Shown here piece after piece: positions 20,876-37,603 of a DNA stretch of 64,000 bases. Source of the DNA: Bacilli bacterium (GTDB lineage: Bacteria > Bacillota_I > Bacilli_A > RFN20 > CAG-826). The notes beneath the pieces are model-generated. The model saw nothing but the letters and a program-made list of their open reading frames with translations. It was not told where the DNA came from and searched no databases. Each line of letters begins with the position of its first letter. The first letter of the stretch is position 1. Location: assembly GCA_017651165.1 (NCBI GenBank), contig JAGCDH010000015.1, positions 13,748 through 77,747 on the forward strand, in the 5' to 3' direction. The position numbers and the translations under genes were made by a program.

Positions 20876-20931
20876 ATTTGATAAATACCTTTAATGTGAT
20901 TACGTATATTATGTTTGAAATCAAACATCAA

Positions 20932-21474
20932 TTACAAATACTTTTTAAAAGCGTTGTTCCAATCTTCTTGTTTGTAGAAGCGGAAACCATAGACATATTC
21001 TATTTTATTTTTAAGATGATTCTTCTCTGCGATTTTTAATAAAGCATTATATGCATTCTTACTATTGGCGAGCATCACGATATTTTCATCAATGCCTTTG
21101 AATGCTTCATAATCTAATTTGATATCTTCTAAATCATCATCTAGAGATGAGTTCTTAGGATTAGAACAGGATTCTACAACATCAAGGAACGCTATTTTCT
21201 TTTCTTTGAGCTCTTCAATAATTGCGGGCACGTCCCCTATCTTTTTATTTTTAACAAAGCTAGTATCTTTAAAAAAGGCATCAATGATGCGATACATCGG
21301 ATTATATGGGCTCATATAGTAAAAGTCTTTGTTGGCACCCCTTCCTTGAGGGGAAGTAATTGTGCCCACGATAATGACTTTTGTGTCTTCTCTAACAAGA
21401 TGATAATCACTATTGAAACTTTTGAATGGGCCACCTTGGCCATCTTCAACAATTGCTTTTGAAAACTTGCTCAT
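20932..21474 (-). CDS. uracil-DNA glycosylase superfamily protein (family 6 / DNA-deoxyinosine glycosylase-like)
   Basis: VIIVGTITSPQGRG...FYYMSPYNPMYRII and LDVVESCSNPKNSSLDDDL resemble the two conserved blocks of hypoxanthine-DNA glycosylase family proteins. Recognised by eye only. Confidence 0.45.
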   Translation of the reverse strand: MSKFSKAIVEDGQGGPFKSFNSDYHLVREDTKVIIVGTITSPQGRGANKDFYYMSPYNPMYRIIDAFFKDTSFVKNKKIGDVPAIIEELKEKKIAFLDVVESCSNPKNSSLDDDLEDIKLDYEAFKGIDENIVMLANSKNAYNALLKIAEKNHLKNKIEYVYGFRFYKQEDWNNAFKKYL

Positions 21475-21482
21475 TGAAGTTA

Positions 21483-22022
21483 TTAATTATCTTTAATGAT
21501 GATGTGCTTCCCACCATTTTCAAATTTATCAAATGGTTGGCTAGCAGATCTAATCCACATCGTTTTTATCTCAAAACCAGCTTGTTTCAATTTGTCTTCC
21601 AGATTTTTGCAATGTGAAAAATCAGTTTTGAAAGCGCTTAGTCCTTGCGAATTAAAGAGTTTAATCAACCCTTTAACATCTTTGATGTTGCTACAGGAGA
21701 AAACTATCTCTTCTTCAAATCTTTTGACGGACATCAAAAAGATAATATCTTTGCCTTCGATAAAAGCGATTCTTTTTAGTGTTTTGATGTTTTCTTCCAA
21801 GATCGAAGTGTTTTCGACATCTGTGTCAAAAACAAAGACAATCCGAGTGTCTCTTTTAATAGTTCTTGCTTTTGTTTCACTTATTTTGGAAGTAACGGGG
21901 TTGAGTTTTTCAATCTTGCCAGGATGAATGATATACTCGCTGCTTTTTGCGTGCATAAAAGAACTTAAAAAGTTCTTCTCACATTCTCCTTCGACGTAGT
22001 ATTGATAAACCCTTCTATCCAT
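21483..22022 (-). CDS. RloB-like / TOPRIM-type protein (AbiLii-like)
   Basis: YYVEGECEKNF (CEGExxExxY-type TOPRIM Glu) and VFVFDTDVE (DxD). The start lies 2 nt after the ATPase stop. Confidence 0.55.
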   Translation of the reverse strand: MDRRVYQYYVEGECEKNFLSSFMHAKSSEYIIHPGKIEKLNPVTSKISETKARTIKRDTRIVFVFDTDVENTSILEENIKTLKRIAFIEGKDIIFLMSVKRFEEEIVFSCSNIKDVKGLIKLFNSQGLSAFKTDFSHCKNLEDKLKQAGFEIKTMWIRSASQPFDKFENGGKHIIIKDN

Positions 22023-22024
22023 TA

Positions 22025-23131
22025 TTAGCTCTCCGCGATATTTAAAATATCGTTAACATCAGGACTAGCATTAAAGAAGTCGTTGTCATAAAGGTTCTTA
22101 ATGTTAACGTTATTACGTTTTTCAATAGAGGCGTTTGTCCAAAGAATTCTTGTGCCTTCTTCGTCTTTAAACTTGCTAATGAAATTAAATGTATGATTTG
22201 GTAATGGGAGCGCTAAAAGCTCTTCGTTATGAGTGGTAAAGAATAATTGTTCACCATCATCCAATAAAGAAATCATCTTCATCAAGCAGGCAATTTCTAT
22301 ATCCGAATTAACATAAGAGAATTGCTCATCTACAAAGTAAAAGCCATTTTTATGTTTCTTAATAGAATGGATAACACCAGCGATATTAACAGCGTATTTA
22401 GTGCCAGAAGATAATCTCTTAATAGAACTGAGTTTAGAACCATTAGTGACCGCTACTGCATCATCGTCTTCAAAAACAACAATGAATGAGTCTGGAATTT
22501 CTGAAGAAGGATAAACATTTTTGATTGTTGGATCCATAGTCTGCAAAACCTTTTTATATACTTCACAGAATTCTTCTTTTTCAGAATCGTCATATTTACA
22601 TTCAATTTTATCAAAGCCATTTTCAATAGATGGGAAGGCGAAATTCCAACCACCAAACACGAACTTATCTAAAGCGGTAAGATAGTTTTCAAATGGTTTA
22701 CTATCATCTAACTTATTAACAAGTGACTCATATGTATCATCATGTTGTGCTTGTAGTTGTCTTAATCTCACTAATAATTCATCCGTTTCTAAGTCTTTTT
22801 TAATCTCAACACGGAAAAAGACACCATTATTAAACATGCAGTCCATTAAGACAAAAAAGTTTCTGCTATCATCTTTAACAAGACTAGTAATATTATTAGA
22901 TTCTTTTTCTTTTAAAAACAAAAATACATGCCAAATAGCTCTACCTAAGGATGTTTTTCCAGAAGCATTAGAACCCACAACAATATTGACTTTGCGGTAT
23001 CTAACGCTTGGATAATTAGCAAAGTACTCTCCATTTAGGTTGCTACTTACCAATTTTTTAGGGTAAGAAAAATCAGTAGAGAAGTTATCAAAACAAAGGA
23101 AATTATCAAACTCCACTTTTAAGACTGCCAT
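22025..23131 (-). CDS. AAA_21/ABC-like ATPase (AbiLi / RloA-like)
   Basis: Walker A VGSNASGKTS, Walker B FYFVDEQ, H-loop FFTTHNEELL. Strong GAGGAG RBS. Confidence 0.65.
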   Translation of the reverse strand: MAVLKVEFDNFLCFDNFSTDFSYPKKLVSSNLNGEYFANYPSVRYRKVNIVVGSNASGKTSLGRAIWHVFLFLKEKESNNITSLVKDDSRNFFVLMDCMFNNGVFFRVEIKKDLETDELLVRLRQLQAQHDDTYESLVNKLDDSKPFENYLTALDKFVFGGWNFAFPSIENGFDKIECKYDDSEKEEFCEVYKKVLQTMDPTIKNVYPSSEIPDSFIVVFEDDDAVAVTNGSKLSSIKRLSSGTKYAVNIAGVIHSIKKHKNGFYFVDEQFSYVNSDIEIACLMKMISLLDDGEQLFFTTHNEELLALPLPNHTFNFISKFKDEEGTRILWTNASIEKRNNVNIKNLYDNDFFNASPDVNDILNIAES

Positions 23132-23265
23132 AATGTTCTCCTCATTAGTTCAAAGTTTTTGAACAAATACATTATAATAGAGCAATCACCATGGTGTCAA
23201 CGAACCATTAAAAAAGTTAAGTATGTAAAAACATTCAACTATAAAATAGTCTGATTTGATGACCG

Positions 23266-24471
23266 CTAATTCCAAAAATAAGAAGGAACACCATCTAAAA
23301 GAGGCAACTCACAAGAAACAATTCTTCCCTGGGTCGTTAAAGAATCAAGCAATCTTTCTGGATTGGTTTGATAACCTTTGAAAATAGCATATGCTGAAAA
23401 AAGTTCTTGGATTGCTTTTCTATGTGCCTGTTTTATTTGGTAAGACTGATCTTGTTTATAGATAGTGAACGCAAACACTATTGTCATATTAGAAGTAAAA
23501 TCAGTCATCTCTAATTTATCTAATAGCGGAAAGAAGTAGCTGTAGTCGCTTTTGTTTAAAGAATGACCATACACTACTACATTATTAAAACTTGGTTCAA
23601 TAGAGGCATTATGGACAATCATATCCATTTCCATCCTTCTGTTTGTCTTGGAGAATATAAATCTAACATCATCACTCTTGAAAACAGTAGAATCTATGCC
23701 AAATATAGGCATATCTAGTGTTCCATTAATACGTCTTAGAATCGCATCATACTTTTCGTTGTTGAAAGTTCCAAAGTTAAAGCTATCAATTGAAACCAAA
23801 GATGAATCCTCTCCTAAAGAAGAAATGGTTTCTGCGGCCTTCATATCATAATCAGCATTATGATGGTTGATAAAATGGTCGAAATAATCGTGCTGACGTT
23901 TTAAATATTTGCCAAAGTTAATCTCAAATTTGCGTAATTCATTAAGTAAAAACTCATAAAAAGAGTTTTCGTCTTCAAATAACAAACCACCGTGTTTTTT
24001 AAAAACAAATGCAGAAAGCGCTATAAAGTTAAAAGTCTTATTCTCGAACTTTTTCTCACCATTAATAATGCTGTAAACATCTTTCCAACAGATGGGTTGT
24101 TTTTTAACATTGATTCCATCTATAGAAGGTATAACAAGAGAAAAAAGTATTTCTTCTTCTATATCGCACCATCTGGCTTTCTCTTTTAATTGAGAATCAT
24201 CTGTAATAATTTCAAAAAATAAATCCCAGACATTTACTTCGTCAAATTTGTCAAAAGGTTCCCAACAATCAAGCAAGGTTGGTCCAAAAAAGCGTTTAGC
24301 AACAAGATTGCCTGAATACTTTTGAATCCATGATTTTATATAATTGTACTTTGCTTCATAATACTCGAAATAGTTGCCGTAAGAAGACATTAATCCGCAA
24401 TGAAGATCAAAGCCATTGCCTATTACTATTTTTACTTTTTTATTATTTTCGATAAACTCTGTTTTTTCCAT
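23266..24471 (-). CDS. AbiH-like abortive infection protein
   Basis: N-terminal VKIVIGNGFDLHCGLMSSY matches the AbiH family hallmark (GNGFDL...Y); 401 aa. Confidence 0.65.
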   Translation of the reverse strand: MEKTEFIENNKKVKIVIGNGFDLHCGLMSSYGNYFEYYEAKYNYIKSWIQKYSGNLVAKRFFGPTLLDCWEPFDKFDEVNVWDLFFEIITDDSQLKEKARWCDIEEEILFSLVIPSIDGINVKKQPICWKDVYSIINGEKKFENKTFNFIALSAFVFKKHGGLLFEDENSFYEFLLNELRKFEINFGKYLKRQHDYFDHFINHHNADYDMKAAETISSLGEDSSLVSIDSFNFGTFNNEKYDAILRRINGTLDMPIFGIDSTVFKSDDVRFIFSKTNRRMEMDMIVHNASIEPSFNNVVVYGHSLNKSDYSYFFPLLDKLEMTDFTSNMTIVFAFTIYKQDQSYQIKQAHRKAIQELFSAYAIFKGYQTNPERLLDSLTTQGRIVSCELPLLDGVPSYFWN

Positions 24472-24478
24472 AATTATA

Positions 24479-25264
24479 TTATGACACTATTAAACCATAA
24501 ATATACATATGCTTCATAAAAAATGGCACCCGTGTGTAAATGGGTGCCAATATCTTATATAGAGGCGAACTATTGCGTTTTTTGTTTAAAGTGAAATGAT
24601 AATAATCAAATAGGAGTGAATCGCTACTAATGGCTACACCACCAGAAGTGAATGGATCTGAACTATCTACGAGTTCTTTTCTAGGGAAAGCATAGTAGAT
24701 ATCATCTTCAACATAATAACCACATATATACTTTTCATTTGTGGGTGCTTGTACCACTACATAGTTATTATCTGTCTTAGATGTATTAACTCTTTCATCT
24801 AGAGATGAATATTGTCTTACATTAACCGTGCCATCTAGATAATAACTAGTTAATCCTAATAGATAAGGCACTAGTTCTTTATTATCTTCTTCATACCTGG
24901 CATTAGGTACTGAATAGTAATAGAAGTTAGTACCACTTCCAGAAGCAGAGATATATAACTCAAAGGTATTATCGTTTGTTTTATTATCTACCCAGTTCAC
25001 TGCATAGATCTTATTAACACTATCATCAATACCTAGATCTTCTAATCCCGCTTTGACTATTAGTTTAAAGACATTGTCTAAATCACTAGTGATATATCTT
25101 TCTGTATACGAAGTAGAAGAACCACTACTAGTTCTAGAAGAACATTTCTTTAAACCAAATAACACAAACAACAAGAGGATGATAATAAAAAGAAGTGTAC
25201 AAATAACACTAATAAAGGCTACCTTAAAAGTATATTTCTTCTTCCCCTTACCTTCTTCACTCAT
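24479..25264 (-). CDS. membrane-anchored protein of unknown function (paralog B of 32856..33581)
   Basis: Charged N-terminus, a single TM (ISVICTLLFIIILLLFVLFGLKKC), Tyr-rich ectodomain. Collinear similarity to the 241-aa ORF (DNVFKLIVK / DEVFKGIVK; LVPYLLGL / FVPYLLSL). Confidence 0.55.
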   Translation of the reverse strand: MSEEGKGKKKYTFKVAFISVICTLLFIIILLLFVLFGLKKCSSRTSSGSSTSYTERYITSDLDNVFKLIVKAGLEDLGIDDSVNKIYAVNWVDNKTNDNTFELYISASGSGTNFYYYSVPNARYEEDNKELVPYLLGLTSYYLDGTVNVRQYSSLDERVNTSKTDNNYVVVQAPTNEKYICGYYVEDDIYYAFPRKELVDSSDPFTSGGVAISSDSLLFDYYHFTLNKKRNSSPLYKILAPIYTRVPFFMKHMYIYGLIVS

Positions 25265-25346
25265 AGTGTAATTCTAATAAATTAGACCCCACAAATAAAG
25301 CCCTAATATCGGCGAGCATCGCACACATAGTAGCAATGCGAGCCAT
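25257..25346 (-). repeat. hairpin/mini-ORF element, full copy A (38-nt core 25309-25346; mini-ORF MARIATMCAMLADIRALFVGSNLLELHYE)
   Basis: Minus strand ATGGCTCGCATTGC-TACTATGTGT-GCGATGCTCGCCGA. The arms pair as GGC/GCC plus GCAUUGC/GCGAUGC. The mini-ORF stop TGA overlaps the paralog B start (ATGAGTGA). Confidence 0.5.
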
Positions 25347-25433
25347 GTGCCATTTCATCTGCTTTATTATAAAGCACAACAAGCAATTTGTCATTTTCGT
25401 TCATAAATGCAAAGTGTCTTTTAAGCATTAGTT

Positions 25434-26009
25434 TTATTGTATTCCTTCTAAAAAGTCTCTAACAGCTAAATCAAAAACACTTTTTAGCTCTTCACCATAC
25501 AATTCCGGTAAATATAACAGCGAATCATATTTCCCGCTATATTTATGATGCATAACAGCATATGAAAAAGCATACGCATCTAATTCGCAATCTTGTTTAA
25601 AATATTTGATGTTTTCATTTCCGTCCTTATCTAAAGACTTGATATAGTTCTCCCCTTCTACAATCCATCTTTTTATATATTCTTCACCAATTTCCGATTT
25701 GCCATCTTTATACAAAACTATCTGAATGTGCTGATAGATGTGCCTTATTTCATGAAGTATAAAATATTCAATTTCATATACTTTATTGCATTTAAAAGCG
25801 GCATCGACAAAAGCTAAATTAATAGACAAAACATTGGTTATTCTGTTGACTGTTGCAGTAATTGAAACATTATCATCCCAAGCAAAACACCACTTGATTG
25901 GTTCATCGATGTCTGTATAAATTTGGTTAGATTCAATAAGTAACTTGATTAGTGGACTATATACTTCTATCAAACGCTTAAAATGATCTTTATTCGTGCT
26001 GATACTCAT
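25434..26009 (-). CDS. HExxH zinc metallopeptidase-like protein (ImmA/IrrE-like)
   Basis: FILHEIRHIYQH plus downstream ELDAYAFSYAV (E..A..FA third-ligand block of COG2856-type peptidases). ATG at 26009 lies 4 nt after the NACHT gene stop; the track start at 26168 overlaps that gene. Confidence 0.5.
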   Translation of the reverse strand: MSISTNKDHFKRLIEVYSPLIKLLIESNQIYTDIDEPIKWCFAWDDNVSITATVNRITNVLSINLAFVDAAFKCNKVYEIEYFILHEIRHIYQHIQIVLYKDGKSEIGEEYIKRWIVEGENYIKSLDKDGNENIKYFKQDCELDAYAFSYAVMHHKYSGKYDSLLYLPELYGEELKSVFDLAVRDFLEGIQ

Positions 26010-26013
26010 AAAA

Positions 26014-29000
26014 TTAAAGCAATTGAAAGTATATTGAAACAATTGATGCTTTAGAAAAATGAATGCTAGACAAATTATCAAGCAATTCTTGGTATTTTTG
26101 CTTAAGAGCGTTGTTAGATTTAATCGTCTCTCGATATTCAAAGTACAATTCACAAACAAAAGTTTCAAGAATAGTTTTTGATTCTCTTAGTTTGTTAAGC
26201 TCATCGTCATTAATTAAACTTTTAACAAAACTATTAATAACTTCTAAAACTTCCGGCATCAAAGAATCGGATGGGTATGTTAAAATCTTACGGAGAATGG
26301 CATTTAAGCAAATAGGATTATTAAGTTTGTATAAAGCAATCAATTTATGCTTTTGGAAAACATTCAAAGATAGATTGCTTCTTTTCTTAGAAGAACCATA
26401 ATTATTTTTTATAAATGCCATTCCTAATTTAATTTCATTATTAATATCAAGTTCTTTAATGCTTTCGAATGAAGCCAATTCAAAATCTATTACCTTAAAT
26501 AAGTATTCTTTGGCATCATCAGAAGCAAATAATAATGATTCCAATTCACACAGAGCGCGATTAATTGTTTCAAACACCGCTCTGCAATATTTGTGTGTGC
26601 TAATATACGAAAAAAGGAATTCAATAGTTTTTGTGGCAGAAGGATAATCTGCGAATAACGGTTTGCTTATATGCACCGCAAGATTGCTTTTAGAAAAGCT
26701 GAGTGGTCTTCTTTGATCCTCAATCATCATTTTATCAAATAAGGCTCCCACCATTTTAAGCCCTTCACCAAGCCTGCAGTTTTGGACTGTCAAAAACAAC
26801 TCACAAGCCTTTTCTAAATAATACGGATCACACTTTTTAAAATCCAATGAATCAATATGAAACTTTTTATTATTAAATAAACAAGCTTCTATAATTATTT
26901 GTTTTTTCTCTTCCTCTTTACTTTTTAAAGACTCAAACTGTTCTTGAGAAAACAACTTATTTGGATTGTTACCAAAAATCTCATAATGAACAGTCGAACA
27001 ACCTATCAAAGCATTGAGGCAACTGTTTCTAAGTTCTTCATCTACTGCTAGAAATCCTACTATGTAAGGAGCTTGTTGCGCTGTGTCTATATCGTTAATT
27101 GAACTAGTCAGCACCTTGAAAGCATATCTCTTAATCCAATCTCTTTGTTGCTCGGAAATATCGAACTTGATTTGCCCTACCAAAGCCAAAATAAGGGAAT
27201 TATCAAAAACAAATACCCTATCAGCGTCAATGCCGTTCATCCATATTTCGCAATGCTTATTTCTTTCATCATAAGTGATCGTTTTATCAATAATGATGAC
27301 AGATATAGAATATACAAGCCACCTTGAGAAAACGGTCATTTCGTTTGTAGGCAACGACAAGATATAGTCAACAAGAGCTTTTGCTCGTTCAATGTCTCTG
27401 CGGTGCAAGATTTCAGCCACTTCATTTTCGATATATTTACTTCTGTCAATATAGTTTTCTTTCTTTTGAATTTGTTCTTTTCTTTCGGCCAACATTTGCT
27501 TTGGACTTTTGATACTGCCGTCGTATCCTTCGTAGTAAGTTGTAATTCGCTTGTCTTTTTTATATTTGGAATAAATGATAGAAAACTTTTCTTTATAAAC
27601 ATTTTGATCATAGTTATCAACAAAGAAAAGATTGTATAAGGATGAGCCCAAATCTAATTTGCGTCTCAAGTCATACTTTTTCTTATAAGGAACTCCCAGG
27701 GAAGCAAAAATATGGTTCTCAAAAAATTGCTTGTTTGAATCTACCTCGTTTTCTTCGTGAAAAAGTATTATATCGTTAATTACTATTTCATACGAATTAG
27801 CTAATGCAAAAATGCCATCAGGATAATAACAAAACAAATAATAATCGATAAAAGATAATAGCGAAAGAGAAGCAACAGTAGCCGAATTCTTAACACATAT
27901 TTCATATATTCGTTTAACAACCGCCTTACATAGTTCTTTGTTCGAAGCGCTATTTTTTAAAAGTTTTTCTGTTTCAAGTTTTGCAACATAAAACATATCC
28001 GAGATGAAAGTTGAACTAGACAATTCTGACTCGCCCAAAGAAAACAAATCACTATGAAAAACAAATGATTTGTTTATTCCGTTAGCTAAAGTAACTTCTA
28101 TCTTACTGGCGTTTTCTTTTGTAAGAAGATTGCCCCCAGCAAAATCCGCAAGTTTAAACAGATAACACAAAGCAAGAGAAAAATTGGATCTTATTAAAGT
28201 GATGAAAAAATTAGAAACAAGAGGATAATAACGATAATCAAGTTCGTCAGATAAACTATGAGCTCCTTCAGAAAAACCAAAGCGATCTTTAAATCTGGTA
28301 TCAAAACCATCATAATGCGGAAAAATAGTCGCTCCGGTTTTTTTATTTGGATTAAGCGTGAAAAACTTATATGAAATATCTGTCATAAAAGAAGCAAAAT
28401 CTTCCGAATAAACTATTTGTTCGTTGAGAGAATCTTCGATATGGTATTTTAATAGACTTATCAAAATCCTCTTTCCGTCTTCGTAAAAATTATAGAGGTA
28501 TTTTTCAAGGATGCCGTTCATGAGAGGGATAAACCATTTAACAGAATGTTGCTGAATATAAAAAGGGACAGTCATTAAAACATCTATCAAATCAAAATCA
28601 ATCCATTCCTCATTGATTAACAGATTAAATACTTCTTCTGTGATATCACTGATATGTTTGGAAGCTACTGAGATATATGTCTTTTGCTGAATTAAGCCAT
28701 TTAAAAGACCAATAACATCTGCCAAATTAATCTTTCCGTGGCGAATCAAATCTAAAGGAAGATTTTCTAATAGTGCCAATCTACCAGCACCTATCGGTTT
28801 AAAAACAAAGTCCGAATTGCGCTTTGCTGCTTCGAACGCATATTCGTTACATATTTCGATAAAAGTTGAATAATCAATGTCGTTATACTTTGCGAGGAAA
28901 CTAATAAATGCTTGGCAATTATCCGAAATCAATATGCCAGCAACTGTGCTCTTGAAATATCTCTCGCGATGACACCCAATGAGTATTTCAGCGACAGCAT

Positions 29001-30585
29001 CATAATTCATTTCGTAGATTAAATCGCCAATCCAAATCTGATATCTCCTAAAGCCGCTTTCGCCATATTTGATGATGCCATCTAAAAACGAGTCAACGCT
29101 TTCTTTGTTTTTAAAGTCATCGGATAAATATTGGCAAAAACATATATCTTCAAAAAGATCGTATTTCATCCTTATTCCATACTTTTCATTTTTTAAAACG
29201 ACGCCGTTGTTAATAAGGATGCTTAAAACCTTTTCATCAACAAGAGATTCGTCAATTCCTAGTTTTCTTTCTTTAGACCTCTCAATAACAATGTCTTTGA
29301 CTGTTTTTATCAATAGGTGTCTATTATCTATTTTCTTCTCTGAAAGACAAATACATTTGTCATAAATCACCCTTTTAAGTTCGGCAACGCTGGTAATATT
29401 ACTATCAATAGAATTCTTAACAATAATATCAACGTATAAAGGTGTCGTAACAACCTCGGAAAAGCTTTTTCCAAGTTTCTTCAAAACAGGAAACTCTTTG
29501 AGCAAGATATTCTTTTCTTCTGTTGAAAGGTTGTCTATGGCAACAGAACATAGGTCTTTTTCGTATTTTAAAAAGAGGTTTTGAAAATGAAGATAATCAC
29601 GTGTCCTACAGGTGACAAAGATTTTTAAATTATCGTACTCTCTGGTTAATAGTAGTAATTCGTCGATAGTTTTATCTTTGCCGAGATAATCTGACACAAA
29701 TTCCAGAGAATCAATACAAAATGTCACTATTTTATTTTTTGTATAATTCAACAATTTTCTTAAATCTATTGACCAAAGATCGTTAATGTTTTTTGCATTA
29801 ATCACTTCTTCTGCTCTGGCAAACAAAAGAATCTCACTATCTTTTATTACTTCCTTGCAAATGGCAGACTTACCAGAACCGGCATCACCTTTGATAACAA
29901 TTATCTTTGATTTACTGCCGCGAATTGTTTTAATTGTTGCTGATCTATCCAAATGAAACCCGTTATTGCCGATTGTTGTGAATATGTCATCCAAAAAGCA
30001 TCCTTTTGATTTTTTTACGGCATTAATTAATTTCGCGCTTATATCACCGACACTAACCGCTTCTTCATAAAGATATTCATATACTCTATTCCTAAACGTT
30101 TTATCATATCTTGATTTTTTTATGACGTCACTCAAAAACACAATATCGCTTTCAGGATTAAATTCGATTCCGTCTATATTTTCTTTAGAAAGCGATTTGA
30201 TATCAGCCATATTAAGAAGAAAGAAAGTAATCCTTTTTATGTCTTTGACATCTTTGTCTTCCTTTTTCCTCAATTCTTTAAATGATTTCAAAGTACTCGT
30301 TATTTTAGCCTTTGAATATTTGGTAACACTCACTTGTATAAACACGTCACCATCTCTGGACTTTAAATCAACGCATTTCCATCCGGGTTTGATAGCATTT
30401 AAATTGCAAAAATCTTGATTGTAATATGCCTCACATATTTCTTTTGCAAAATCCTCAAAAAGAATAGCTTCATCAATTAAACCCGCCGATATGCTTGCAT
30501 TAACTACATTTGTATAGTTTTCAATTCTGTCCTTGATGAAATCTATTTGTTTTTTGATAGGTGTTTTATCCATAATTGCTTTCAT
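26014..30585 (-). CDS. NACHT/STAND-class NTPase, 1523 aa, with N-terminal effector-like domain and long helical C-terminal region
   Basis: Walker A IKGDAGSGKSA, Walker B IVTFCIDSLEF (hhhhDxhDE-like), sensor-1-like IFVTCRTRDY. N-terminal CVDLKSRDGDVFIQVSVTK is a possible Mrr/PD-(D/E)xK-like core. About 1100 aa of helical repeats follow. Confidence 0.6.
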   Translation of the reverse strand: MKAIMDKTPIKKQIDFIKDRIENYTNVVNASISAGLIDEAILFEDFAKEICEAYYNQDFCNLNAIKPGWKCVDLKSRDGDVFIQVSVTKYSKAKITSTLKSFKELRKKEDKDVKDIKRITFFLLNMADIKSLSKENIDGIEFNPESDIVFLSDVIKKSRYDKTFRNRVYEYLYEEAVSVGDISAKLINAVKKSKGCFLDDIFTTIGNNGFHLDRSATIKTIRGSKSKIIVIKGDAGSGKSAICKEVIKDSEILLFARAEEVINAKNINDLWSIDLRKLLNYTKNKIVTFCIDSLEFVSDYLGKDKTIDELLLLTREYDNLKIFVTCRTRDYLHFQNLFLKYEKDLCSVAIDNLSTEEKNILLKEFPVLKKLGKSFSEVVTTPLYVDIIVKNSIDSNITSVAELKRVIYDKCICLSEKKIDNRHLLIKTVKDIVIERSKERKLGIDESLVDEKVLSILINNGVVLKNEKYGIRMKYDLFEDICFCQYLSDDFKNKESVDSFLDGIIKYGESGFRRYQIWIGDLIYEMNYDAVAEILIGCHRERYFKSTVAGILISDNCQAFISFLAKYNDIDYSTFIEICNEYAFEAAKRNSDFVFKPIGAGRLALLENLPLDLIRHGKINLADVIGLLNGLIQQKTYISVASKHISDITEEVFNLLINEEWIDFDLIDVLMTVPFYIQQHSVKWFIPLMNGILEKYLYNFYEDGKRILISLLKYHIEDSLNEQIVYSEDFASFMTDISYKFFTLNPNKKTGATIFPHYDGFDTRFKDRFGFSEGAHSLSDELDYRYYPLVSNFFITLIRSNFSLALCYLFKLADFAGGNLLTKENASKIEVTLANGINKSFVFHSDLFSLGESELSSSTFISDMFYVAKLETEKLLKNSASNKELCKAVVKRIYEICVKNSATVASLSLLSFIDYYLFCYYPDGIFALANSYEIVINDIILFHEENEVDSNKQFFENHIFASLGVPYKKKYDLRRKLDLGSSLYNLFFVDNYDQNVYKEKFSIIYSKYKKDKRITTYYEGYDGSIKSPKQMLAERKEQIQKKENYIDRSKYIENEVAEILHRRDIERAKALVDYILSLPTNEMTVFSRWLVYSISVIIIDKTITYDERNKHCEIWMNGIDADRVFVFDNSLILALVGQIKFDISEQQRDWIKRYAFKVLTSSINDIDTAQQAPYIVGFLAVDEELRNSCLNALIGCSTVHYEIFGNNPNKLFSQEQFESLKSKEEEKKQIIIEACLFNNKKFHIDSLDFKKCDPYYLEKACELFLTVQNCRLGEGLKMVGALFDKMMIEDQRRPLSFSKSNLAVHISKPLFADYPSATKTIEFLFSYISTHKYCRAVFETINRALCELESLLFASDDAKEYLFKVIDFELASFESIKELDINNEIKLGMAFIKNNYGSSKKRSNLSLNVFQKHKLIALYKLNNPICLNAILRKILTYPSDSLMPEVLEVINSFVKSLINDDELNKLRESKTILETFVCELYFEYRETIKSNNALKQKYQELLDNLSSIHFSKASIVSIYFQLL

Positions 30586-30639
30586 ACTTATATTATGCGA
30601 TATCTAAAGGAACGATGGAATTAGTTTGAAAATCTAGGC

Positions 30640-30670
30640 AAAAAAAGATGATGCCAATAAAAGCATCATC
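30640..30670 (-). terminator. rho-independent terminator between rfbB and the NACHT gene
   Basis: Minus strand GATGATGC-TTTTATTG-GCATCATC followed by TTTTTTTG. Confidence 0.7.
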
Positions 30671-30702
30671 GGTATTGTTTCATCTTCTGTTAAATTCTAG
30701 AC

Positions 30703-30719
30703 AGTAATGCGAGCCATGT
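30703..30719 (-). repeat. hairpin/mini-ORF element, truncated copy B (left arm only)
   Basis: Minus strand ACATGGCTCGCATTACT. It shares the first ~16 nt with copies A and C and then diverges (MARITV-stop). Confidence 0.45.
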
Positions 30720-30728
30720 ACTATTTTG

Positions 30729-31757
30729 CTATTTCCTGTTATCGTAGTTCTTCTTTAGCCATTCGGCGTTTTGTGCCATACATTCATTGAGCCAAGTAGA
30801 ACCTTTATCCGATAAATACCATTCAATGGTTTTCTTAATGCCAACTTCAAAAGTGGTAATTGGATCCCAACCTAATTCTTTATTAGCTTTCGCAGGATCA
30901 ATCGCATATCTTTGGTCGTGTCCATGTCTATCCGCGACAAATTCAATTAATGATACTGGTTTATTCAGTTCAGAAAGAATGCGTTTAACAATATACAAGT
31001 TATTTCTTTCGTTATGACCACCTAAGTTATATACTTCCCCTACTTTGCCTCTTTCTAATACCGCAAGGATACCTCTACAGTGGTCTTCAACATATAACCA
31101 GTCTCTAACATTAATGCCTTGACCGTAAACAGGTAGTTTTTGATCATGGTTAGCTTTATATATCATTAAAGGTATTAGTTTTTCTGGGAATTGATATGGG
31201 CCATAGTTATTAGAACATCTAGAGATAGTAACTGGTAGACCATAGGTACGGTAGTACGCTAATACTAATAGGTCCGCACTAGCTTTAGATGTGCTATATG
31301 GGCTAGATGTATGTAATGGAGTATCTTCGTGGAAGAATAAGTCTGGTCTATCTAATGGTAAATCACCATATACTTCATCAGTAGATACTTGATGATATCT
31401 TTCAATGCCGTATTTCCTACACGCATCCATTAAAACTTCTGTACCAATAATATTAGTGGTTAAGAAACTTTCTGGATCTAAGATAGATCTATCAACATGA
31501 GATTCTGCTGCAAAGTTAACAACAATATTTGGTTTTTCTTCTTCAAATATCTTATTAATTGCTTCTCTATCTCTAATATCAGTCTTATAGAACTTATAGT
31601 TAGGATTATTTAATTCTTCTTTGATAGTATTAGGATTAGCGGCATATGTTAAAGAATCAACATTCACCACTTTCCAGTCTTTTCTTTCATTTAATAATAA
31701 TTTGCAGAAGCAGTTACCAATAAAACCCGCTCCACCTGTCACTAATATTGTTTTCAT
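30729..31757 (-). CDS. rfbB: dTDP-glucose 4,6-dehydratase
   Basis: ILVTGGAGFIGNCF Rossmann motif, STDEVYG, YSTSKASAD (YxxxK); 342 aa. Confidence 0.9.
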   Translation of the reverse strand: MKTILVTGGAGFIGNCFCKLLLNERKDWKVVNVDSLTYAANPNTIKEELNNPNYKFYKTDIRDREAINKIFEEEKPNIVVNFAAESHVDRSILDPESFLTTNIIGTEVLMDACRKYGIERYHQVSTDEVYGDLPLDRPDLFFHEDTPLHTSSPYSTSKASADLLVLAYYRTYGLPVTISRCSNNYGPYQFPEKLIPLMIYKANHDQKLPVYGQGINVRDWLYVEDHCRGILAVLERGKVGEVYNLGGHNERNNLYIVKRILSELNKPVSLIEFVADRHGHDQRYAIDPAKANKELGWDPITTFEVGIKKTIEWYLSDKGSTWLNECMAQNAEWLKKNYDNRK

Positions 31758-31807
31758 ATCATTCTCCTTTCGGCGAGCAATGCATGAATCGATGCAATGC
31801 GAGCCAT
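31754..31807 (-). repeat. hairpin/mini-ORF element, full copy C (38-nt core 31770-31807; mini-ORF MARIASIHALLAERRMI)
   Basis: Minus strand ATGGCTCGCATTGC-ATCGATTCAT-GCATTGCTCGCCGA, directly followed by AAGGAGA. The mini-ORF stop overlaps the rfbB ATG as ATGA. Confidence 0.5.
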
Positions 31808-31814
31808 ATATTGC

Positions 31815-32846
31815 TTAGGTAACCTTCTTTGGTTTAAGTTTCAAAGTGTTGCCAATTATTACCGTCTTCATTATATAAACGTCTAGTTCCTTTTTGCGCG
31901 CAATTTCAATAATTGCGCCCTTGTCATATTCGCTTATCTTTTCGCCTAAATAAACTGCTTTGGGTTTTGCGACCCCTAGTTTAACATAATTATCATTTGC
32001 TCGACCAATGATGGGGTTGTAATTATAGCCAATGAGCCTCCATTCGTTTTCATAATACCACGGAAGTTTCTTTCTATAATATGCGTTTTGAATAAAATGA
32101 ATTGTCTCTTTTTCGTTATAGTTTTTAAGAGATTGCTCAAGAGGAAAAACAATTGGATTGTATCCTCCATCGGCATCAATCTTCTCCAAAACCGCATCTA
32201 TGTAATTATTGCACAAATCCGTAACATTGTATTTATCGTTTTGATAAATAACAGGTAGTAATGGATCATGAATGATGTCTTTATTGAAAGAATAGCCTTT
32301 AATGACATCTAGTTCCGAAACAATATCAAAGATAGATTCTTGATGCTCGATGCCTATTCTTCTTAAGGTACTGTAGTCATATTCAAGAACAAATCCAGTT
32401 GCCAATCCTGCATAATGTGCCCACATTATTTCTTGGTTAACATCAGTGGAAAAGCAAGCAAATGCATACACATTATTGCCAAATTGAATGTCTGGGGCCA
32501 AATCTCTCTCATAAATACAATTAACAAGTTCGTTTATTTGGCTACAATGTAAATTGTTTTGCTTTAATAATCTCTTTAAGAATTTATTATTCTTAACAAG
32601 ACTGCTTTTGATATGTTTTTTAATCTGTCTTTCAGAAAATCTAACAGCAGCATCGTATGGATCGTTAAACGCTACTGGGCAAGTTGCATATATCTCATCT
32701 TTTATGAATTGATTGATTGTGTGCTTATTAATTGGTCTATATCGGTATAGGGAAAACTTGTCATTATTGATAGCAATATTGACCTCTGTTTCTTTTTCCG
32801 TCCTAATTACTTTGACAGTGTAGTTTTTATTTTTCGCTATTTTCAT
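31815..32846 (-). CDS. DUF2971-family protein
   Basis: LYRYRPINKHTINQFIKDEIYATCPVAFNDPYD matches the DUF2971 N-terminal hallmark (Y.Y....l..l....l.f..p..fNDP.D). The start lies 9 nt after the paralog A stop. Confidence 0.55.
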   Translation of the reverse strand: MKIAKNKNYTVKVIRTEKETEVNIAINNDKFSLYRYRPINKHTINQFIKDEIYATCPVAFNDPYDAAVRFSERQIKKHIKSSLVKNNKFLKRLLKQNNLHCSQINELVNCIYERDLAPDIQFGNNVYAFACFSTDVNQEIMWAHYAGLATGFVLEYDYSTLRRIGIEHQESIFDIVSELDVIKGYSFNKDIIHDPLLPVIYQNDKYNVTDLCNNYIDAVLEKIDADGGYNPIVFPLEQSLKNYNEKETIHFIQNAYYRKKLPWYYENEWRLIGYNYNPIIGRANDNYVKLGVAKPKAVYLGEKISEYDKGAIIEIARKKELDVYIMKTVIIGNTLKLKPKKVT

Positions 32847-32855
32847 AGTCTACTT

Positions 32856-33581
32856 CTAATCCATCAGTTTTTGAAAATATCCATAAAGCGGACTATCTAA
32901 TCCAATAACTTGATTAGATGTCTCACTAAATGGATTACTAATCAATATTTTATTTTGATAAATATAATATTCGTTATTTTGATAATAAAAGCCAGAGAAA
33001 TATTTATCAGTGCCACTCATATTGCTGCTTATTAGATATCTACATTCTTTATCAGTAGTTATTGTTTCTGACGTTGGTAAATATGTATCAAGGGATATAG
33101 TTCCTTCATCTAAAGATAATTTAGTATCTAAATCTAAAGATAATAAATATGGAACAAAATTATCAAAGCCACTATAAGGATAATTGCTTAATCTATAATA
33201 ATAGACTTTAGATTCACTTCTAACTTCAATATTAAGATCAAATGATGTAGAAATATCACTATATGTTACTGATACCACATCCGTTAATATATCTTCATCA
33301 AATCCATCCACAACCAATTGATTCTTAACAATACCTTTAAATACCTCATCTATCTTATTAACACCATAATCATACTTTATAGAGGAACTATTACTAGATT
33401 GAGGGTCACTACTATTGTTATTACATTTCTTTAAACCAAGAAGAACAAGTAATAAAAGGATAACAATAAAAAGAAGAGTACCAATAACAGAAGCAATAAC
33501 TATTTTTAAGTCACGTTTCGCTTGTTTTTTCTTCTGCTCCTTATTATCTTGTTCCAACTCTTTTTTCTCTTTGTTTAACAT
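32856..33581 (-). CDS. membrane-anchored protein of unknown function (paralog A of 24479..25264)
   Basis: Lys/Glu-rich N-terminus, a single TM (IASVIGTLLFIVILLLLVLLGLKKC), Ser-rich linker, Tyr-rich ectodomain. Confidence 0.55.
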   Translation of the reverse strand: MLNKEKKELEQDNKEQKKKQAKRDLKIVIASVIGTLLFIVILLLLVLLGLKKCNNNSSDPQSSNSSSIKYDYGVNKIDEVFKGIVKNQLVVDGFDEDILTDVVSVTYSDISTSFDLNIEVRSESKVYYYRLSNYPYSGFDNFVPYLLSLDLDTKLSLDEGTISLDTYLPTSETITTDKECRYLISSNMSGTDKYFSGFYYQNNEYYIYQNKILISNPFSETSNQVIGLDSPLYGYFQKLMD

Positions 33582-33645
33582 AATATATTCCTTTTAATAG
33601 GCTATTCTAATAATAGTAAGATAAGGTTTATATTCTAACGAAATA

Positions 33646-34416
33646 TTATTTTAAACCGCAAATAATTCTATGATTTATTTCGTTACAAATATTATCTAAG
33701 TCTGGCATTAAATGGAATTCATCATAACCAAGTTTCTCTAAATATAAGAGCGCTTCCGCTCTGATGGCATCATCAATAATGATAATTTGAGATTTCTCGG
33801 CGATTCTATTCTCTACAGATTCTTTTGTTAATTTGGTCGGAACAACAAAAAGCCCTTGTTGGACAAGCATCCTTTGATTGCGATAGTTAGGCTTCGCTGT
33901 GTATATTCCAGTTTTCTTTGATAGTTTCTTAAATTCCTTATTTAGTATATCGCAATAAGGCACATCTATTTGAAATGCCATATCATCTAACGTCAGGGTT
34001 GCTGTTTTTGAATTAAAATATGGCTCTGACTTAATTGAGTCATATATAACGTTGGTATTTGTTTTATCGAGCGCATATATGATATATTCTCCGTCTTTTC
34101 CCTTGGCGTTTCTTAGGCAAAAGAATAATGCAACATAAGGATTGCTCGTGAAATCAATTAATCTAGTCATTAACCCACAATGTTGCGCCAGTGCAAGAAA
34201 TTCCCAACAGTTATTAGCGGTTGAATATAAACCATAGTATTTTTCGAATGTTTTTAATATTTGATATTCCTTTTTCGAATAGTCATTATCTCTGATTATT
34301 TTTGGATACAATTGATTCTTATTATTGACGCCACGAAATATAGCATTTCTTTCCATCAACTCGTCAAATAGTTGTTTTAATTCTACTAAAGTTTTTATTC
34401 TAATAACGCTTCCCAT
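33646..34416 (-). CDS. FRG-domain protein
   Basis: IFRGVNN (FRG motif) and LALAQHCGLMTRLIDFTSNPYVALFF (AQHyG.pT.llD.T block). AGGAG RBS. Confidence 0.65.
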   Translation of the reverse strand: MGSVIRIKTLVELKQLFDELMERNAIFRGVNNKNQLYPKIIRDNDYSKKEYQILKTFEKYYGLYSTANNCWEFLALAQHCGLMTRLIDFTSNPYVALFFCLRNAKGKDGEYIIYALDKTNTNVIYDSIKSEPYFNSKTATLTLDDMAFQIDVPYCDILNKEFKKLSKKTGIYTAKPNYRNQRMLVQQGLFVVPTKLTKESVENRIAEKSQIIIIDDAIRAEALLYLEKLGYDEFHLMPDLDNICNEINHRIICGLK

Positions 34417-34494
34417 AAAATCTCCTAATAATACATTTTTGAATCCAACGGCTTATAATCCTGACTCATTTTAGTGAACCCGACGTTTTATAAA

Positions 34495-36774
34495 CTATTC
34501 CTTGTTATCAATAGTCCACTTCAAAACATCTTCGAAATCTAAAAGGCAACAGTCAAATCCATACGATAATTCTTGATAAAAGCGATTGAGGTATTTATAT
34601 ATTTCATCCATGTTTGTTAGATTTCCACAATACAGGAACCTAAAACCAGTTTTATGAGTTCTAAGGCCTGTATTGATCAAATCGTTGAACGTTTTTAATT
34701 CTTGGTTTAATTGATTTAGGGTGCCATCAGCATTTCTTTGAAGAAGCATTCCGCTACTATCCACTGGAGCAAAATTATTAACGACCATTACAAGTGATCT
34801 GGATTTTTGTATTATTCTCGTTGTGTTGTTAAAACCAAGATCTCTATCTTCTTCATTGCAACAATAATTATTCAAAAACACTCTTATTCCATTTACACTT
34901 AATAAATCGCATAGTTTCTTGGCGGCGGCATAAGTGCCGTTTTCGCTACATGTCCCATGATACGCAATAAAAACATCGTAATCATAGTCTTCGTTAAGAT
35001 TTATCGTCGTCTCTGAAGCCATTATTTCGTTGATTCTATTTTGTATAATATCTCTTACCAAATCGCTTTTGGCATAAATGTTTAATGATGCAGTAGCACG
35101 AGTCATCAAAGTATATAGTTGCATATAAATATGTTGAAGGTTCTTCGTGTCTTTGTATGAAAACTCTTGCATTACATCTGGAATATATAAATAAATCGAT
35201 TCTGCTTCCCTAGAGATAATTTCGTATGGAGTTAAATAATACTTGGGAGCTATTTCATCGCTGAATAAGTAGTTAAAATAATCACTATAATTAGGTGGGA
35301 TTTTTGTTATGGTTTTATCACCACTTTCAAAATAATAACTAGTGACATTAGAAAGCGCTATCGAAACATAATGTTTTCTCTTACTTAAATCTTCTTCAAA
35401 AGCTTCTATAAAATCATCAGCATTATCAAAATTGATAATTTGATATTCACCAGGATTGATCGGTTTTATGCCGTCAAATCCTAACAGATATAAAATATTG
35501 GCCATTATTTCTTTTGGTATGCCTATAGTTTCATAAAACTTATGTTGTCTAAATGGCTTATCTGAGTAATACTCTTTGATTACATCAAATCCTTCGTCTT
35601 TATTAACGTTAATTCTTTGAAGATTATCACCAAAAAAGATTGTGCATTTATGGTTTTTAATATTCTTTATTGCCTCGAATGGATTAAACGCTGAATAATG
35701 CTTACCTGTATAGAAGCTGTTATAACTACCCATTCTTCCTAATCTTTGTGCTTCATCAACTATCAAAAAAGAAAAATCATCCACAAAAGATTTATCCATT
35801 TTGCTCTTTAGCCAACAACCGGTCTGCCTTGAAAAGTCATGATGATAAATCCTATTGCCAGGAAACTCTAAATTCATTGTTTTAAAAGCGCTCTTTAAAT
35901 CTTTATAAAACTTGTAATTCATCAAGAGAAGTTTGCAGTCTGGATACTTATTCAACAAAAGCATAGATAAAATGGTTTTGCCGCTTCTAGCCGGGCCTTC
36001 TATCGTAATATATTCAACGTTATTATCTATTTCAAAACAAATGTCATCATAGTTTTCCTTCGTTTGCTGAAATAATTCGAATTCACGTTCTCCCTTTGTA
36101 TAGGCATTAACACAATCAATTAATTCTTTATCTTTTGCTTCTGCTAAAACAAGTTCATCACTAACATTTTGAACAAATCTTACATAACGGGTAGCACCAA
36201 ATATTTCTGTTTTATTTGGATACTTTTTAAAAACAGAACTCGTATTCCAATAAAATATAGAAAAGTCATTCTTAGTTATTTGGCTCTTAGAATCGCAAAA
36301 GACCAAAACAATATAGACATACGAATGGACAAACCAAGCAAGGTGTCGCTTTTTAAGATTTCTAAAAATCATGTTGGCCAACCATTCGTCAAGAACCCCA
36401 CGATTTGTGGTTTCAGAGGCTAATAAACTGCTATTGATTGACCAATGAACATCAACATCTGGTTTATAAACAATAACATCTCTTTTAAGATTTGGAACAC
36501 GCGTACCAAAGGTAGTATTCCATAGGTTTTTATCAATAAAGCAGAAAAAACATGTTCTGGAATTGCGTTGCATTAAACGTCTGGTTTTGGTCAATCTTTC
36601 TGTCGTATCTTTAACAATGCTTGCATAAAAACAGTCAAAAGAAGGCATTGATAGTTTTTCAGAGATTGGTTTATCGAATTTAATATCCGCAATATGTTTG
36701 AAAAAATAGGAAATGTAGTCCTCCTCACGAGAAGGTGTGCTATTTAGTAGGAAATCTCTATAATTCACTTTCAT
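34495..36774 (-). CDS. multidomain protein: N-terminal putative PD-DxK nuclease-like region, DUF2075-type P-loop NTPase, C-terminal TIR domain
   Basis: Walker A EGPARSGKT, Walker B FLIVDEAQRL. C-terminal YDVFIAYHG...IRVFLNN...SLVMVVNN follows the TIR_2 pattern. N-terminal YKPDVDV...IVLVFCDSK is a tentative nuclease core. The track start at 36870 is TTG, so ATG at 36774 (GAAGAGGA upstream) was chosen. Confidence 0.6.
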   Translation of the reverse strand: MKVNYRDFLLNSTPSREEDYISYFFKHIADIKFDKPISEKLSMPSFDCFYASIVKDTTERLTKTRRLMQRNSRTCFFCFIDKNLWNTTFGTRVPNLKRDVIVYKPDVDVHWSINSSLLASETTNRGVLDEWLANMIFRNLKKRHLAWFVHSYVYIVLVFCDSKSQITKNDFSIFYWNTSSVFKKYPNKTEIFGATRYVRFVQNVSDELVLAEAKDKELIDCVNAYTKGEREFELFQQTKENYDDICFEIDNNVEYITIEGPARSGKTILSMLLLNKYPDCKLLLMNYKFYKDLKSAFKTMNLEFPGNRIYHHDFSRQTGCWLKSKMDKSFVDDFSFLIVDEAQRLGRMGSYNSFYTGKHYSAFNPFEAIKNIKNHKCTIFFGDNLQRINVNKDEGFDVIKEYYSDKPFRQHKFYETIGIPKEIMANILYLLGFDGIKPINPGEYQIINFDNADDFIEAFEEDLSKRKHYVSIALSNVTSYYFESGDKTITKIPPNYSDYFNYLFSDEIAPKYYLTPYEIISREAESIYLYIPDVMQEFSYKDTKNLQHIYMQLYTLMTRATASLNIYAKSDLVRDIIQNRINEIMASETTINLNEDYDYDVFIAYHGTCSENGTYAAAKKLCDLLSVNGIRVFLNNYCCNEEDRDLGFNNTTRIIQKSRSLVMVVNNFAPVDSSGMLLQRNADGTLNQLNQELKTFNDLINTGLRTHKTGFRFLYCGNLTNMDEIYKYLNRFYQELSYGFDCCLLDFEDVLKWTIDNKE

Positions 36775-36873
36775 CTTAGATCTACTATCCTCTTCACAAA
36801 AATAATAAGAAAAGATGATTGATAAATCAATCCAAACTAAGGAGCCAAACGCAATTAATATAATTAACAATCA

Positions 36874-36902
36874 ATAATAAAAATGGCGTTGTTTCCAACG
36901 CC
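36874..36902 (-). terminator. rho-independent terminator after the Abi_2/HEPN gene
   Basis: Minus strand GGCGTTG-GAAA-CAACGCC followed by ATTTTTATTATT. Confidence 0.7.
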
Positions 36903-36931
36903 ACTTATTTAAAATAGCAATAATATATTGC

Positions 36932-37603
36932 TTAAATAGTTTTCACAAACTTTCTTAAATCGGCAGTAATACCGCCATGACCATTTTTACCATGTCTATA
37001 TCTTTCAGGTAATAACTGTCTTAGATTCTTAATGTTGTTCTCCAGAGAATTTGATTGATATCCATCGACAGTGCAGCTCTTAAAATTATATGTTTTTAAA
37101 AACTTATGATGACCTATGCAATTCCTTAATTCTTTAACTGCTTGTAAGTTCTCGTTGGTGCCCACTCCACCAAATAGTTCGTCTTTATCCGACCGCGGTA
37201 ATGCTTGCACTTGTTGAATCAATGTTCCTAAATCTGTATCTTGAAGAATTTCAAATAATGGCTTTCCTTTAGTAATATTATCTTTAATGCTATTGTGGTT
37301 GCCTTTCCCGTTAATCCAGAACGATTGATTCAGATCATTTTCATATTTATTGGATATATAGGCTCTTATATATTCTTCTAATGTCGCTAGATAAATATAT
37401 AAAGTATCCCTTAATCCTTTATCTAAGCGTAGTTCGTCTGATATTTGTTTCCAGATTATTGCTTGGTTATTGTTCTCTTTTAAAAGATAATCATAAATCT
37501 CTTTATGAAGAGATAAACCCTTTACTTTAATGTAAAAAAGCGCGTCATCGCGCTCCTCATTACTATTGAATATTATTTTAGATAAGAATTGTTCTTTGGT
37601 CAT
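36932..37603 (-). CDS. Abi_2 (AbiD/AbiF-like) HEPN-domain protein
   Basis: LRLDKGLRDTLYIYLATLEEYIRAYISN and ELRNCIGHHKFL (Rx4H) fit the Abi_2 family pattern. The start overlaps the upstream stop as ATGA. Confidence 0.55.
   Translation of the reverse strand: MTKEQFLSKIIFNSNEERDDALFYIKVKGLSLHKEIYDYLLKENNNQAIIWKQISDELRLDKGLRDTLYIYLATLEEYIRAYISNKYENDLNQSFWINGKGNHNSIKDNITKGKPLFEILQDTDLGTLIQQVQALPRSDKDELFGGVGTNENLQAVKELRNCIGHHKFLKTYNFKSCTVDGYQSNSLENNIKNLRQLLPERYRHGKNGHGGITADLRKFVKTI

Follow-up and report, generated by a model that had tools for sequence, protein, structure and literature searches.

Locus organization

Two adjacent minus-strand genes in a 64,000-nt stretch of contig JAGCDH010000015.1 (assembly GCA_017651165.1, Bacilli bacterium; hereafter the window) encode a 1523-aa STAND NTPase and a 191-aa protein with an HExxH motif (Table 1). 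An earlier note, made from the sequence alone, had read the pair as a NACHT-type sensor coupled to a small metallopeptidase. Our analysis adds the large gene to the known, structurally characterised Avs4 family as a new and divergent member, its product being an antiviral STAND protein with a SMEK/Mrr-type nuclease effector and not a NACHT protein. The small gene encodes a zincin that is probably not a component of the Avs4-like system, even though it is probably co-transcribed with it here.

Both open reading frames (ORFs), the motifs quoted for them and their 4-nt spacing proved real, both in the sequence and in alignments of homologs. The listed ORF of the small gene starts at a TTG at 26168, while the ATG at 26009, which yields 191 aa, is backed by the N-termini of 51 homologs. 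The Avs4-like gene ends with TAA at 26016-26014, and TTTT then leads into the ATG of the small gene. On the minus strand, neither a terminator-like nor a promoter-like site was found at or near this junction, so the Avs4-like and zincin genes are probably co-transcribed in this genome. The 4-nt spacing alone says little, since closely spaced genes are frequent in this array, whose members run in one direction: counted from coordinates, gaps of ≤10 nt occur at about a third of the same-strand junctions between 9.8 and 47 kb of the window.

Table 1. Features of the Avs4-like/zincin locus, in window coordinates
Feature	Position	Strand	Basis or remark
Avs4-family antiviral STAND NTPase gene	26014..30585	-	ORF, 1523 aa + stop codon
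N-terminal SMEK_N / Mrr-like PD-(D/E)xK nuclease effector domain, aa 17-157	30115..30537	-	PF21941, NF033859 and 26bh_D profile match
STAND NTPase core + winged-helix region, about aa 215-520	29026..29943	-	Invariant columns, AlphaFold2 model, Foldseek
Walker A, G233-S240	29866-29889	-	Walker B = D292/E295; sensor-1 = R327
C-terminal helical sensor region, aa 521-1523	26017..29025	-	Up to ~aa 1080 aligned with EcAvs4 sensor
4-nt spacer TTTT, from stop codon of Avs4-like gene to ATG of small gene	26010..26013	-	Sequence
191-aa stand-alone zincin (gluzincin-like) gene, uncharacterised family	25434..26009	-	HEIRH at 25740-25754, ELDAYAF at 25566-25586
Intrinsic terminator-like hairpin + T-run	30647..30670	-	Ends upstream sugar-dehydratase gene, separating the Avs4-like gene from it
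Promoter-like site ATGACA-17-TATAAT	25366..25394	-	11/12 matches, best in region; just after small gene

The large protein is a divergent Avs4-family STAND

The N-terminal domain matches Pfam SMEK_N (PF21941) at aa 17-157 with an E-value of 2.8e-20, over the curated cut-off, and is likewise matched by NCBIfam NF033859. In a comparison of the family profile with PDB, the N-terminal 150 positions matched 26bh_D, the ‘Mrr domain from Kordia jejudonensis Mrr-APAZ pAgo’ (E = 2.5e-9). The suggestion that this region is an Mrr/PD-(D/E)xK effector is borne out by the SMEK_N and 26bh_D matches. SMEK has been described as a nuclease domain fused to APAZ in short prokaryotic Argonaute (pAgo) systems (PMC10810196), and the SMEK/Mrr-APAZ partner of the K. 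jejudonensis short pAgo (26bh) shares a D...Q-x-S...K motif with the window N-terminus. In contrast to the APAZ fusion of the 26bh type, the window SMEK domain is joined to a STAND ATPase and a sensor, and the system has no Argonaute. Five residues of the nuclease domain (E44, D73, Q84, S86 and K94) are invariant in 16/16 family members having a SMEK domain; D73 and Q84 fall in the N-terminal strand that had been quoted from sequence. Two homologs, P0015 and P0017, are without SMEK_N and carry an unrelated N-terminus of ~170 aa with the hydrophobic stretch FVSALITIASGLKGLL, a difference consistent with possible effector swapping within the Avs4-like clade.

We recovered 18 homologs of the large protein, including a 100%-identical one from a metagenome-assembled genome (MAG), annotated as ‘SMEK domain-containing protein [Bacilli bacterium]’. 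Across their alignment, Walker A (GDAGSGKS in the window protein) is invariant at G233, G236, G238, K239 and S240, Walker B at D292 and E295 in hhhhIDSLE, and sensor-1 at R327 in (T/S)CR, which reads TCRTRD in the window protein. Pfam matches to the ATPase all lie below their cut-offs (nSTAND3, E = 0.0034; nSTAND5, E = 0.0048; NACHT, E = 0.23), the NACHT match (PF05729) scoring 11.7 bits against a cut-off of 26.7 and covering the P-loop only, at aa 228-247. The invariant Walker and sensor-1 residues and the structural neighbours described below confirm the STAND core that had been proposed. The description of the protein as Avs/bNACHT-like holds for its Avs architecture, with a long helical sensor and homology to EcAvs4, and fails for the NACHT label, given the sub-threshold PF05729 score.

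Assignment to Avs4 comes from sequence profiles and from structure. Compared with all PDB sequences, the family profile matched EcAvs4 (8dgf_A) at E = 7.6e-42, placing profile positions 166-1083 on Avs4 residues 167-1096 (~920 positions), an alignment that takes in the ATPase, the winged-helix region and, within the sensor, ~500 residues. Foldseek, given an AlphaFold2 model for aa 1-640 (pLDDT 86.7), likewise retrieved 8DGF as the best match at E = 6e-20. The runner-up, NLRC4 (2e-8), is eleven orders of magnitude worse, and the further neighbours (NOD2, Avs3, NLRP3, Avs5, CED-4 and Apaf-1) are all STAND/NLR proteins. The PADLOC Avs4 model (PDLC02169) matches 6/18 family members, with a best E-value of 1.7e-47; the window protein itself is too divergent for it. 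Domain architecture, Avs4 homology and conserved catalytic-type residues are direct observations on this protein.

Avs4 is a portal-sensing STAND that forms tetramers and activates an N-terminal Mrr nuclease (PMC11897194; bioRxiv 10.64898/2026.08.25.746987). Like EcAvs4, whose structure with the phage PhiV-1 portal is PDB 8DGF, the window protein is tripartite, with an Mrr-type nuclease, a STAND ATPase and a helical sensor. The two are similar in length (1587 aa for EcAvs4 and 1523 aa here), share the Walker B variant hhhhDSxE and the sensor-1 Arg, and are both single-gene systems. They differ in that the clade of the window protein has about 17% identity to 8DGF in structural alignment, and in that its nuclease domain is of the SMEK_N type known from short pAgo partners, the N-terminal domain of EcAvs4 being unaligned at sequence level. 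The host, an uncultured gut Bacilli MAG, is also unlike that of EcAvs4.

The small protein belongs to an uncharacterised zincin family

The 191-aa protein has no significant match in Pfam, NCBIfam or PADLOC. We found 56 homologs, and in an alignment of 52 sequences, reaching down to 36% identity, E81, H86, E87, R89, H90, Q93, G130, E142, D144, A145 and Y157 are invariant. The AlphaFold2 model (pLDDT 93.6, pTM 0.90) consists of an N-terminal helix, a three-stranded sheet, an HExxH helix at 77-101 that holds H86, E87 and H90, and a later helix at 140-156 that holds E142 and D144. The family is thereby best described as uncharacterised small proteins with a gluzincin-type motif, probably active to judge from its conserved residues. 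An exhaustive profile search gave 408 representatives at E ≤ 1e-3 (50% identity clustering), of which nearly all stand alone, at 175-195 aa. Among more distant relatives, the four that were scanned (P0174, P0189, P0190 and P0200; 228-241 aa) all carry a C-terminal SEC-C zinc-binding motif. Longer zincin-containing proteins (with GNAT, OEP and others) were apparently sporadic fusions or artefacts of gene calling, and no hint of function came from them.

Foldseek searches of the model against PDB returned only weak zinc-peptidase matches, headed by minigluzincins (E = 0.46) and followed by Wss1, IrrE/PprI and BlaR1, and BFVD gave weak matches to phage SprT-like, IrrE-like and M48 proteins. The Pfam BSP family (PF04450) reaches E = 0.14 against the window protein, and among the 52 members the most frequent weak matches are BSP in 22/52 (best 1.3e-5) and SprT-like (PF10263) in 13/52 (best 0.0016). 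A comparison of the small-family profile with PDB sequences yielded a single MIT-domain match (E = 0.07), which we regard as spurious. Like the minigluzincins (jannalysin, selecase, abylysin) and the SprT/Wss1/BSP zincins, the 191-aa protein is small and soluble, with an HExxH helix and an invariant Glu/Asp in a later helix. The matches to these proteins are nevertheless non-significant (Foldseek E ≥ 0.46, TM-score <0.5; Pfam below cut-offs in most members), and the 191-aa protein is set apart by one more helix at its N-terminus and by a helical extension at its C-terminus.

The small protein had been called ImmA/IrrE-like. This survives in so far as the HExxH...E pattern is invariant in the family, and the HExxH ... 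E-x-x-A-x-x-F pattern is one that it has in common with ImmA, IrrE and CapP (Peptidase_M78). Both groups are made up of small cytoplasmic proteins, with members beside defence systems and on mobile elements. The family assignment itself does not hold: Peptidase_M78 (PF06114) gives no match to the window protein at E ≤ 1 and is not among the 25 commonest families of the 52 members, and IrrE/PprI structures rank 15th to 17th in the Foldseek search, at E > 2.7. The weak similarities favour BSP/SprT-like proteins and minigluzincins at least as much as IrrE. Unlike genes of the ImmA/IrrE/CapP type, moreover, the 191-aa gene is without a cognate HTH (helix-turn-helix) repressor, an HTH domain being found in none of the 10 flanking window genes scanned. 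Taken together, these results favour a zinc peptidase of the cytoplasm, often located in defence islands.

The two genes are not conserved as a pair

Grouping loci by the Avs4-like gene, we found the zincin gene missing at 5/5 informative closer-homolog loci, those of P0003, P0004, P0005 and P0006 (43-45% identity) and P0010 (26%). Downstream of these homologs lie a Big_2 protein, a dCMP-deaminase-like protein, an opposite-strand HNH_5 gene, an 81-aa ORF and an Eco57I-like gene, and no neighbour recurs across the 5 loci, in keeping with a single-gene architecture. Among 80 metagenomic loci of more distant Avs4-like relatives, 58 of them with at least 700 nt of downstream sequence, none has a zincin homolog at E ≤ 1e-3, which brings the absence to 85/85 other Avs4-like loci. 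A survey of this kind had been named in the earlier note as a test that could overturn a dedicated peptidase partner, and on its result, 0/5 closer and 0/80 distant loci, that claim is abandoned. We also considered whether the closest zincin homolog (P0023, locus L055) lies downstream of P0002, the closest Avs4-like homolog, whose sample accession is a neighbouring one; in L055, a 30-aa fragment precedes the zincin and bears no match to the C-terminus of the Avs4-like protein, and the end of the P0002 contig makes the comparison uninformative.

The converse of the partnership fails as well, in that zincin homologs adjoin unrelated genes. We assembled 36 zincin loci from species-representative genomes (gut and rumen Bacilli, Clostridia, Christensenellaceae and one Atopobiaceae MAG) and added further contig look-ups. 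None of them has an Avs4-like gene, which holds for about 30 distinct loci outside the window. Upstream neighbours are an SLFN-like helicase, a Fic protein matching PADLOC SoFic, a MatE transporter, an AAA_14/DUF4143 ATPase, a radical-SAM activase, a DEAD/ResIII helicase, a SASA esterase, a DUF3732 ATPase, HipA, UvrD with GajA (Gabija), an HTH protein, a nucleotidyltransferase, SAP-domain and cyclophilin-like proteins, and an AAA_21/DUF4435 ATPase. HTH-containing upstream genes occur at only 2 of about 30 zincin loci.

Two locus comparisons, of the window with L012 and of L049 with L051, show INDEPENDENCE. The rumen Bacilli MAG at L012 shares the window backbone, and its zincin gene directly follows the SLFN-like helicase, while helicase and zincin are separated in the window by five genes, namely FRG, a membrane protein, DUF2971, the dehydratase and the Avs4-like gene. 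Similarly, one common HNH_5/ASCH backbone follows an Avs4-like gene, with no zincin, in L049, and follows a 263-aa gene and a zincin in L051. Based on these comparisons, we regard the Avs4-like and zincin genes as independent island components, adjacent here by chance. Members of the zincin family would then travel on their own between the variable regions, the defence islands and the integrative elements found in gut Firmicutes.

Some smaller regularities emerged from the same loci. The module shared by L049 (5262-8499) and L051 (4305-7517) consists of HNH_5 on the reverse strand, a ~625-aa gene and a ~122-aa ASCH gene, and the two arrangements look like alternative cassettes at one hotspot. 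One Eubacteriales MAG has two zincin copies ~4 kb apart (L041:2528-4442 and L041:6749-8564), each preceded by ORFs of the same sizes, 99 aa and 161 aa, which suggests a duplicated small module. A family of 136-139 aa with no Pfam match adjoins the zincin in 4 loci (among them L007:6568-6987, L017:8580-8990 and L035:1671-2081), upstream in L007 and L008, where the zincin is one and the same (P0045), and downstream in the remaining pair of loci. Besides serine recombinases, it is the sole recurrent zincin neighbour.

Proposed mechanism and alternative explanations

We think it likely that the window holds an Avs4-family STAND that serves unaided as a pattern-recognition receptor, next to a zincin that is independent and autonomous. 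For the large protein, we infer ligand, oligomeric state and stoichiometry, and DNA degradation by analogy with EcAvs4. The C-terminal helical sensor would bind a conserved phage structural protein, as with the portal in the Avs4 case; since the homology covers much of the Avs4 sensor, the portal is the default expected ligand. The ATP-bound STAND domains would then oligomerise, EcAvs4 forming tetramers, and induced proximity would pair the N-terminal SMEK/Mrr-like nuclease domains into active dimers, so that DNA would be degraded and the infection aborted. Members of the zincin family are probably stand-alone, catalytically competent zinc peptidases, judging from the HExxH and Glu residues. 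Our best guess for the window zincin, held with low confidence, is that it may act autonomously; it could, for instance, be a protease module of one gene that takes part in phage-host conflict.

Several observations weigh against this picture. The window protein has no PADLOC match at E ≤ 1, the Avs4 model included, and a single-sequence phmmer search of it against PDB was empty, only the family profile succeeding. As PADLOC misses the window protein and matches 6 of its 18 relatives, its Avs4 membership is transitive, at the level of profiles. The last ~440 aa of the sensor are without a match in the 8dgf_A alignment, so that the ligand may differ from portal. On the side of the zincin, the closest Avs4-like homolog (P0002, 58% identity) is uninformative about the pair, because its contig ends 3 nt past the stop codon. 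By our own count the zincin gene lies <100 nt downstream of a co-directional gene in about 20/33 loci, and this gene is often a defence gene (SoFic, Gabija GajA/UvrD, HipA, OLD-like ATPase); such tight placement could reflect a general accessory role and not autonomy. In this genome, the 4-nt gap without terminator-like or promoter-like sites may reflect a local functional link.

These last points are the starting place for an explanation that we consider unlikely, in which the zincin is a promiscuous accessory or regulator for many defence systems, Avs4-like ones included, and processes, activates or turns over the upstream protein, or cleaves a repressor or phage inhibitor. The peptidase CapP, which regulates CBASS and other systems, offers a loose parallel, and the Avs2-trypsin-MBL system is a precedent for a protease-coupled Avs. 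Besides the uninterrupted junction in the window, such a role could account for the tight juxtaposition of zincin genes to SoFic (5-nt gap), the GajA and UvrD pair (4-nt overlap), AAA_14/DUF4143 (12-nt gap) and AAA_21/DUF4435 (overlap), and for HipA just upstream (69-nt gap). Against it stand the absence of the zincin gene at all other Avs4-like loci, upstream neighbours with no part in defence (MatE, radical-SAM activase, SASA esterase, cyclophilin-like and SAP-domain proteins), and the roughly one third of loci where the upstream gene lies at a distance of >130 nt or is encoded on the opposite strand. There is also no consistently adjacent HTH partner, unlike in CapH/CapP or ImmR/ImmA, and short gaps are the norm in this island.

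It is still less probable that the zincin is cargo of integrative elements, either an anti-defence or anti-restriction protease or an ImmA-like derepressor, beside which the Avs4-like gene happened to land. A large serine recombinase does lie within 4 genes of the zincin in 8 loci, an HTH + Peptidase_M78 gene is found near the zincin in L054, and SprT-like and IrrE-like proteins of phages, as well as domains from phage polyvalent proteins, are among the weak structural matches. Direct searches of mobile-element sequences point the other way: tblastn came back empty from 50,697 records of phages and 72,556 of plasmids, a scan of 2.9 million IMG/VR contigs gave one weak match, and PHROGs had no significant family. 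In the window and in L007, L009, L012 and L051, furthermore, the setting is a chromosomal defence islet whose called genes are without a recombinase. The last explanation, a catalytically inactive zincin-fold immunity or adaptor protein that keeps HExxH for structure only, seems to us very improbable. It would fit with the protein having no significant similarity to any characterised peptidase, but H86, E87, H90, E142 and D144 are strictly invariant over 52 sequences, the signature of a working gluzincin metal site.

A broader idea, which we put forward as a doubtful conjecture, is that the ~190-aa HExxH/E proteins are an undescribed family of defence-island zinc peptidases. They may be a general module behind unrelated systems (Avs4-like, SoFic, Gabija, HipA, OLD-like ATPases, SLFN-like helicases), serving as a shared protease amplifier, a regulator or a guard against phage inhibitors, or alternatively a stand-alone abortive-infection protease like Lit.

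The analysis adds a divergent Avs4 clade with a SMEK-type nuclease, from uncultured gut and rumen Bacilli. Because the PADLOC Avs4 model misses such a clade, standard defence-finder models undercount Avs proteins in low-GC gut lineages. The analysis also removes the attractive idea of a NACHT-type sensor with a dedicated metallopeptidase, which is unsupported. The ~190-aa zincin family, with about 400 representatives at 50% identity, a confident fold and no characterised member, recurs beside diverse defence genes and is a reasonable candidate for screening.

Surrounding island and repeat element

The pair sits in a defence islet that is itself surrounded by genes for polysaccharide biosynthesis. 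In order of minus-strand transcription, the islet comprises an SLFN-like helicase, FRG, DUF2971, the Avs4-like gene, the zincin, AbiH and an AAA_21 ATPase; a dTDP-glucose-dehydratase-like gene is placed mid-way. Defence genes lie inside polysaccharide or capsule clusters (glycosyltransferases, Wzz, epimerases, the dTDP-glucose-dehydratase-like gene) both in the window, at ~20900-38300, and in the unrelated homolog loci L001, L003, L007, L009 and L050. Glycan loci may therefore be a place where defence islets settle repeatedly in these gut Bacilli.

The gene upstream of the Avs4-like gene (30729..31757) is the dTDP-glucose-dehydratase-like one, with matches to GDP_Man_Dehyd/Epimerase. The pair had been credited with a terminator of its own on this side; a hairpin with a T-run does exist there, and because it lies 59 nt past the stop codon of the dehydratase-like gene, it is most simply the terminator of that gene. 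On the other side of the pair, the promoter-like site, which is a consensus match only, with no evidence of function, suggests that the next gene (24479..25264) may start a new transcription unit.

The repeat said to bracket the pair was recovered, with the core ATGGCTCGCATTGC on the minus strand at 25309-25355 and 30703-30726 and a third copy at 31770-31816, that is, three copies where chance would give 0.28. Two of the copies are complete and make up an imperfect palindrome, GGCTCGCATTGC-N10-GCATTGCTCGCC; they are located in the 5′ leaders of two genes, the dehydratase gene and that for a 261-aa membrane protein, while a half copy lies between the stop codon and the terminator of the dehydratase gene. 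The hairpin of the repeat is no more stable than those of shuffled sequences. We considered ATGGCTCGCATTGC as an integron-like cassette mark and set this aside, as there are three copies in the window, none in the first 50 related loci, and no Rfam match.

Paralogous predicted membrane proteins without a Pfam match flank the region on the minus strand (261 aa at 24479-25264 and 241 aa at 32856-33581), and their genes share a 67-nt stretch of 82% identity that encodes an N-terminal hydrophobic segment. Further upstream, the backbone shared between the window (34495-38241) and L012 (3301-7593) encodes a 213-aa protein (88% identity), a 223-aa protein (68%), for which the homolog in L005/L012 has a weak Abi_2 match, and the SLFN-like helicase (36%). 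These very uneven identities suggest that the helicase has been exchanged or is fast-evolving.

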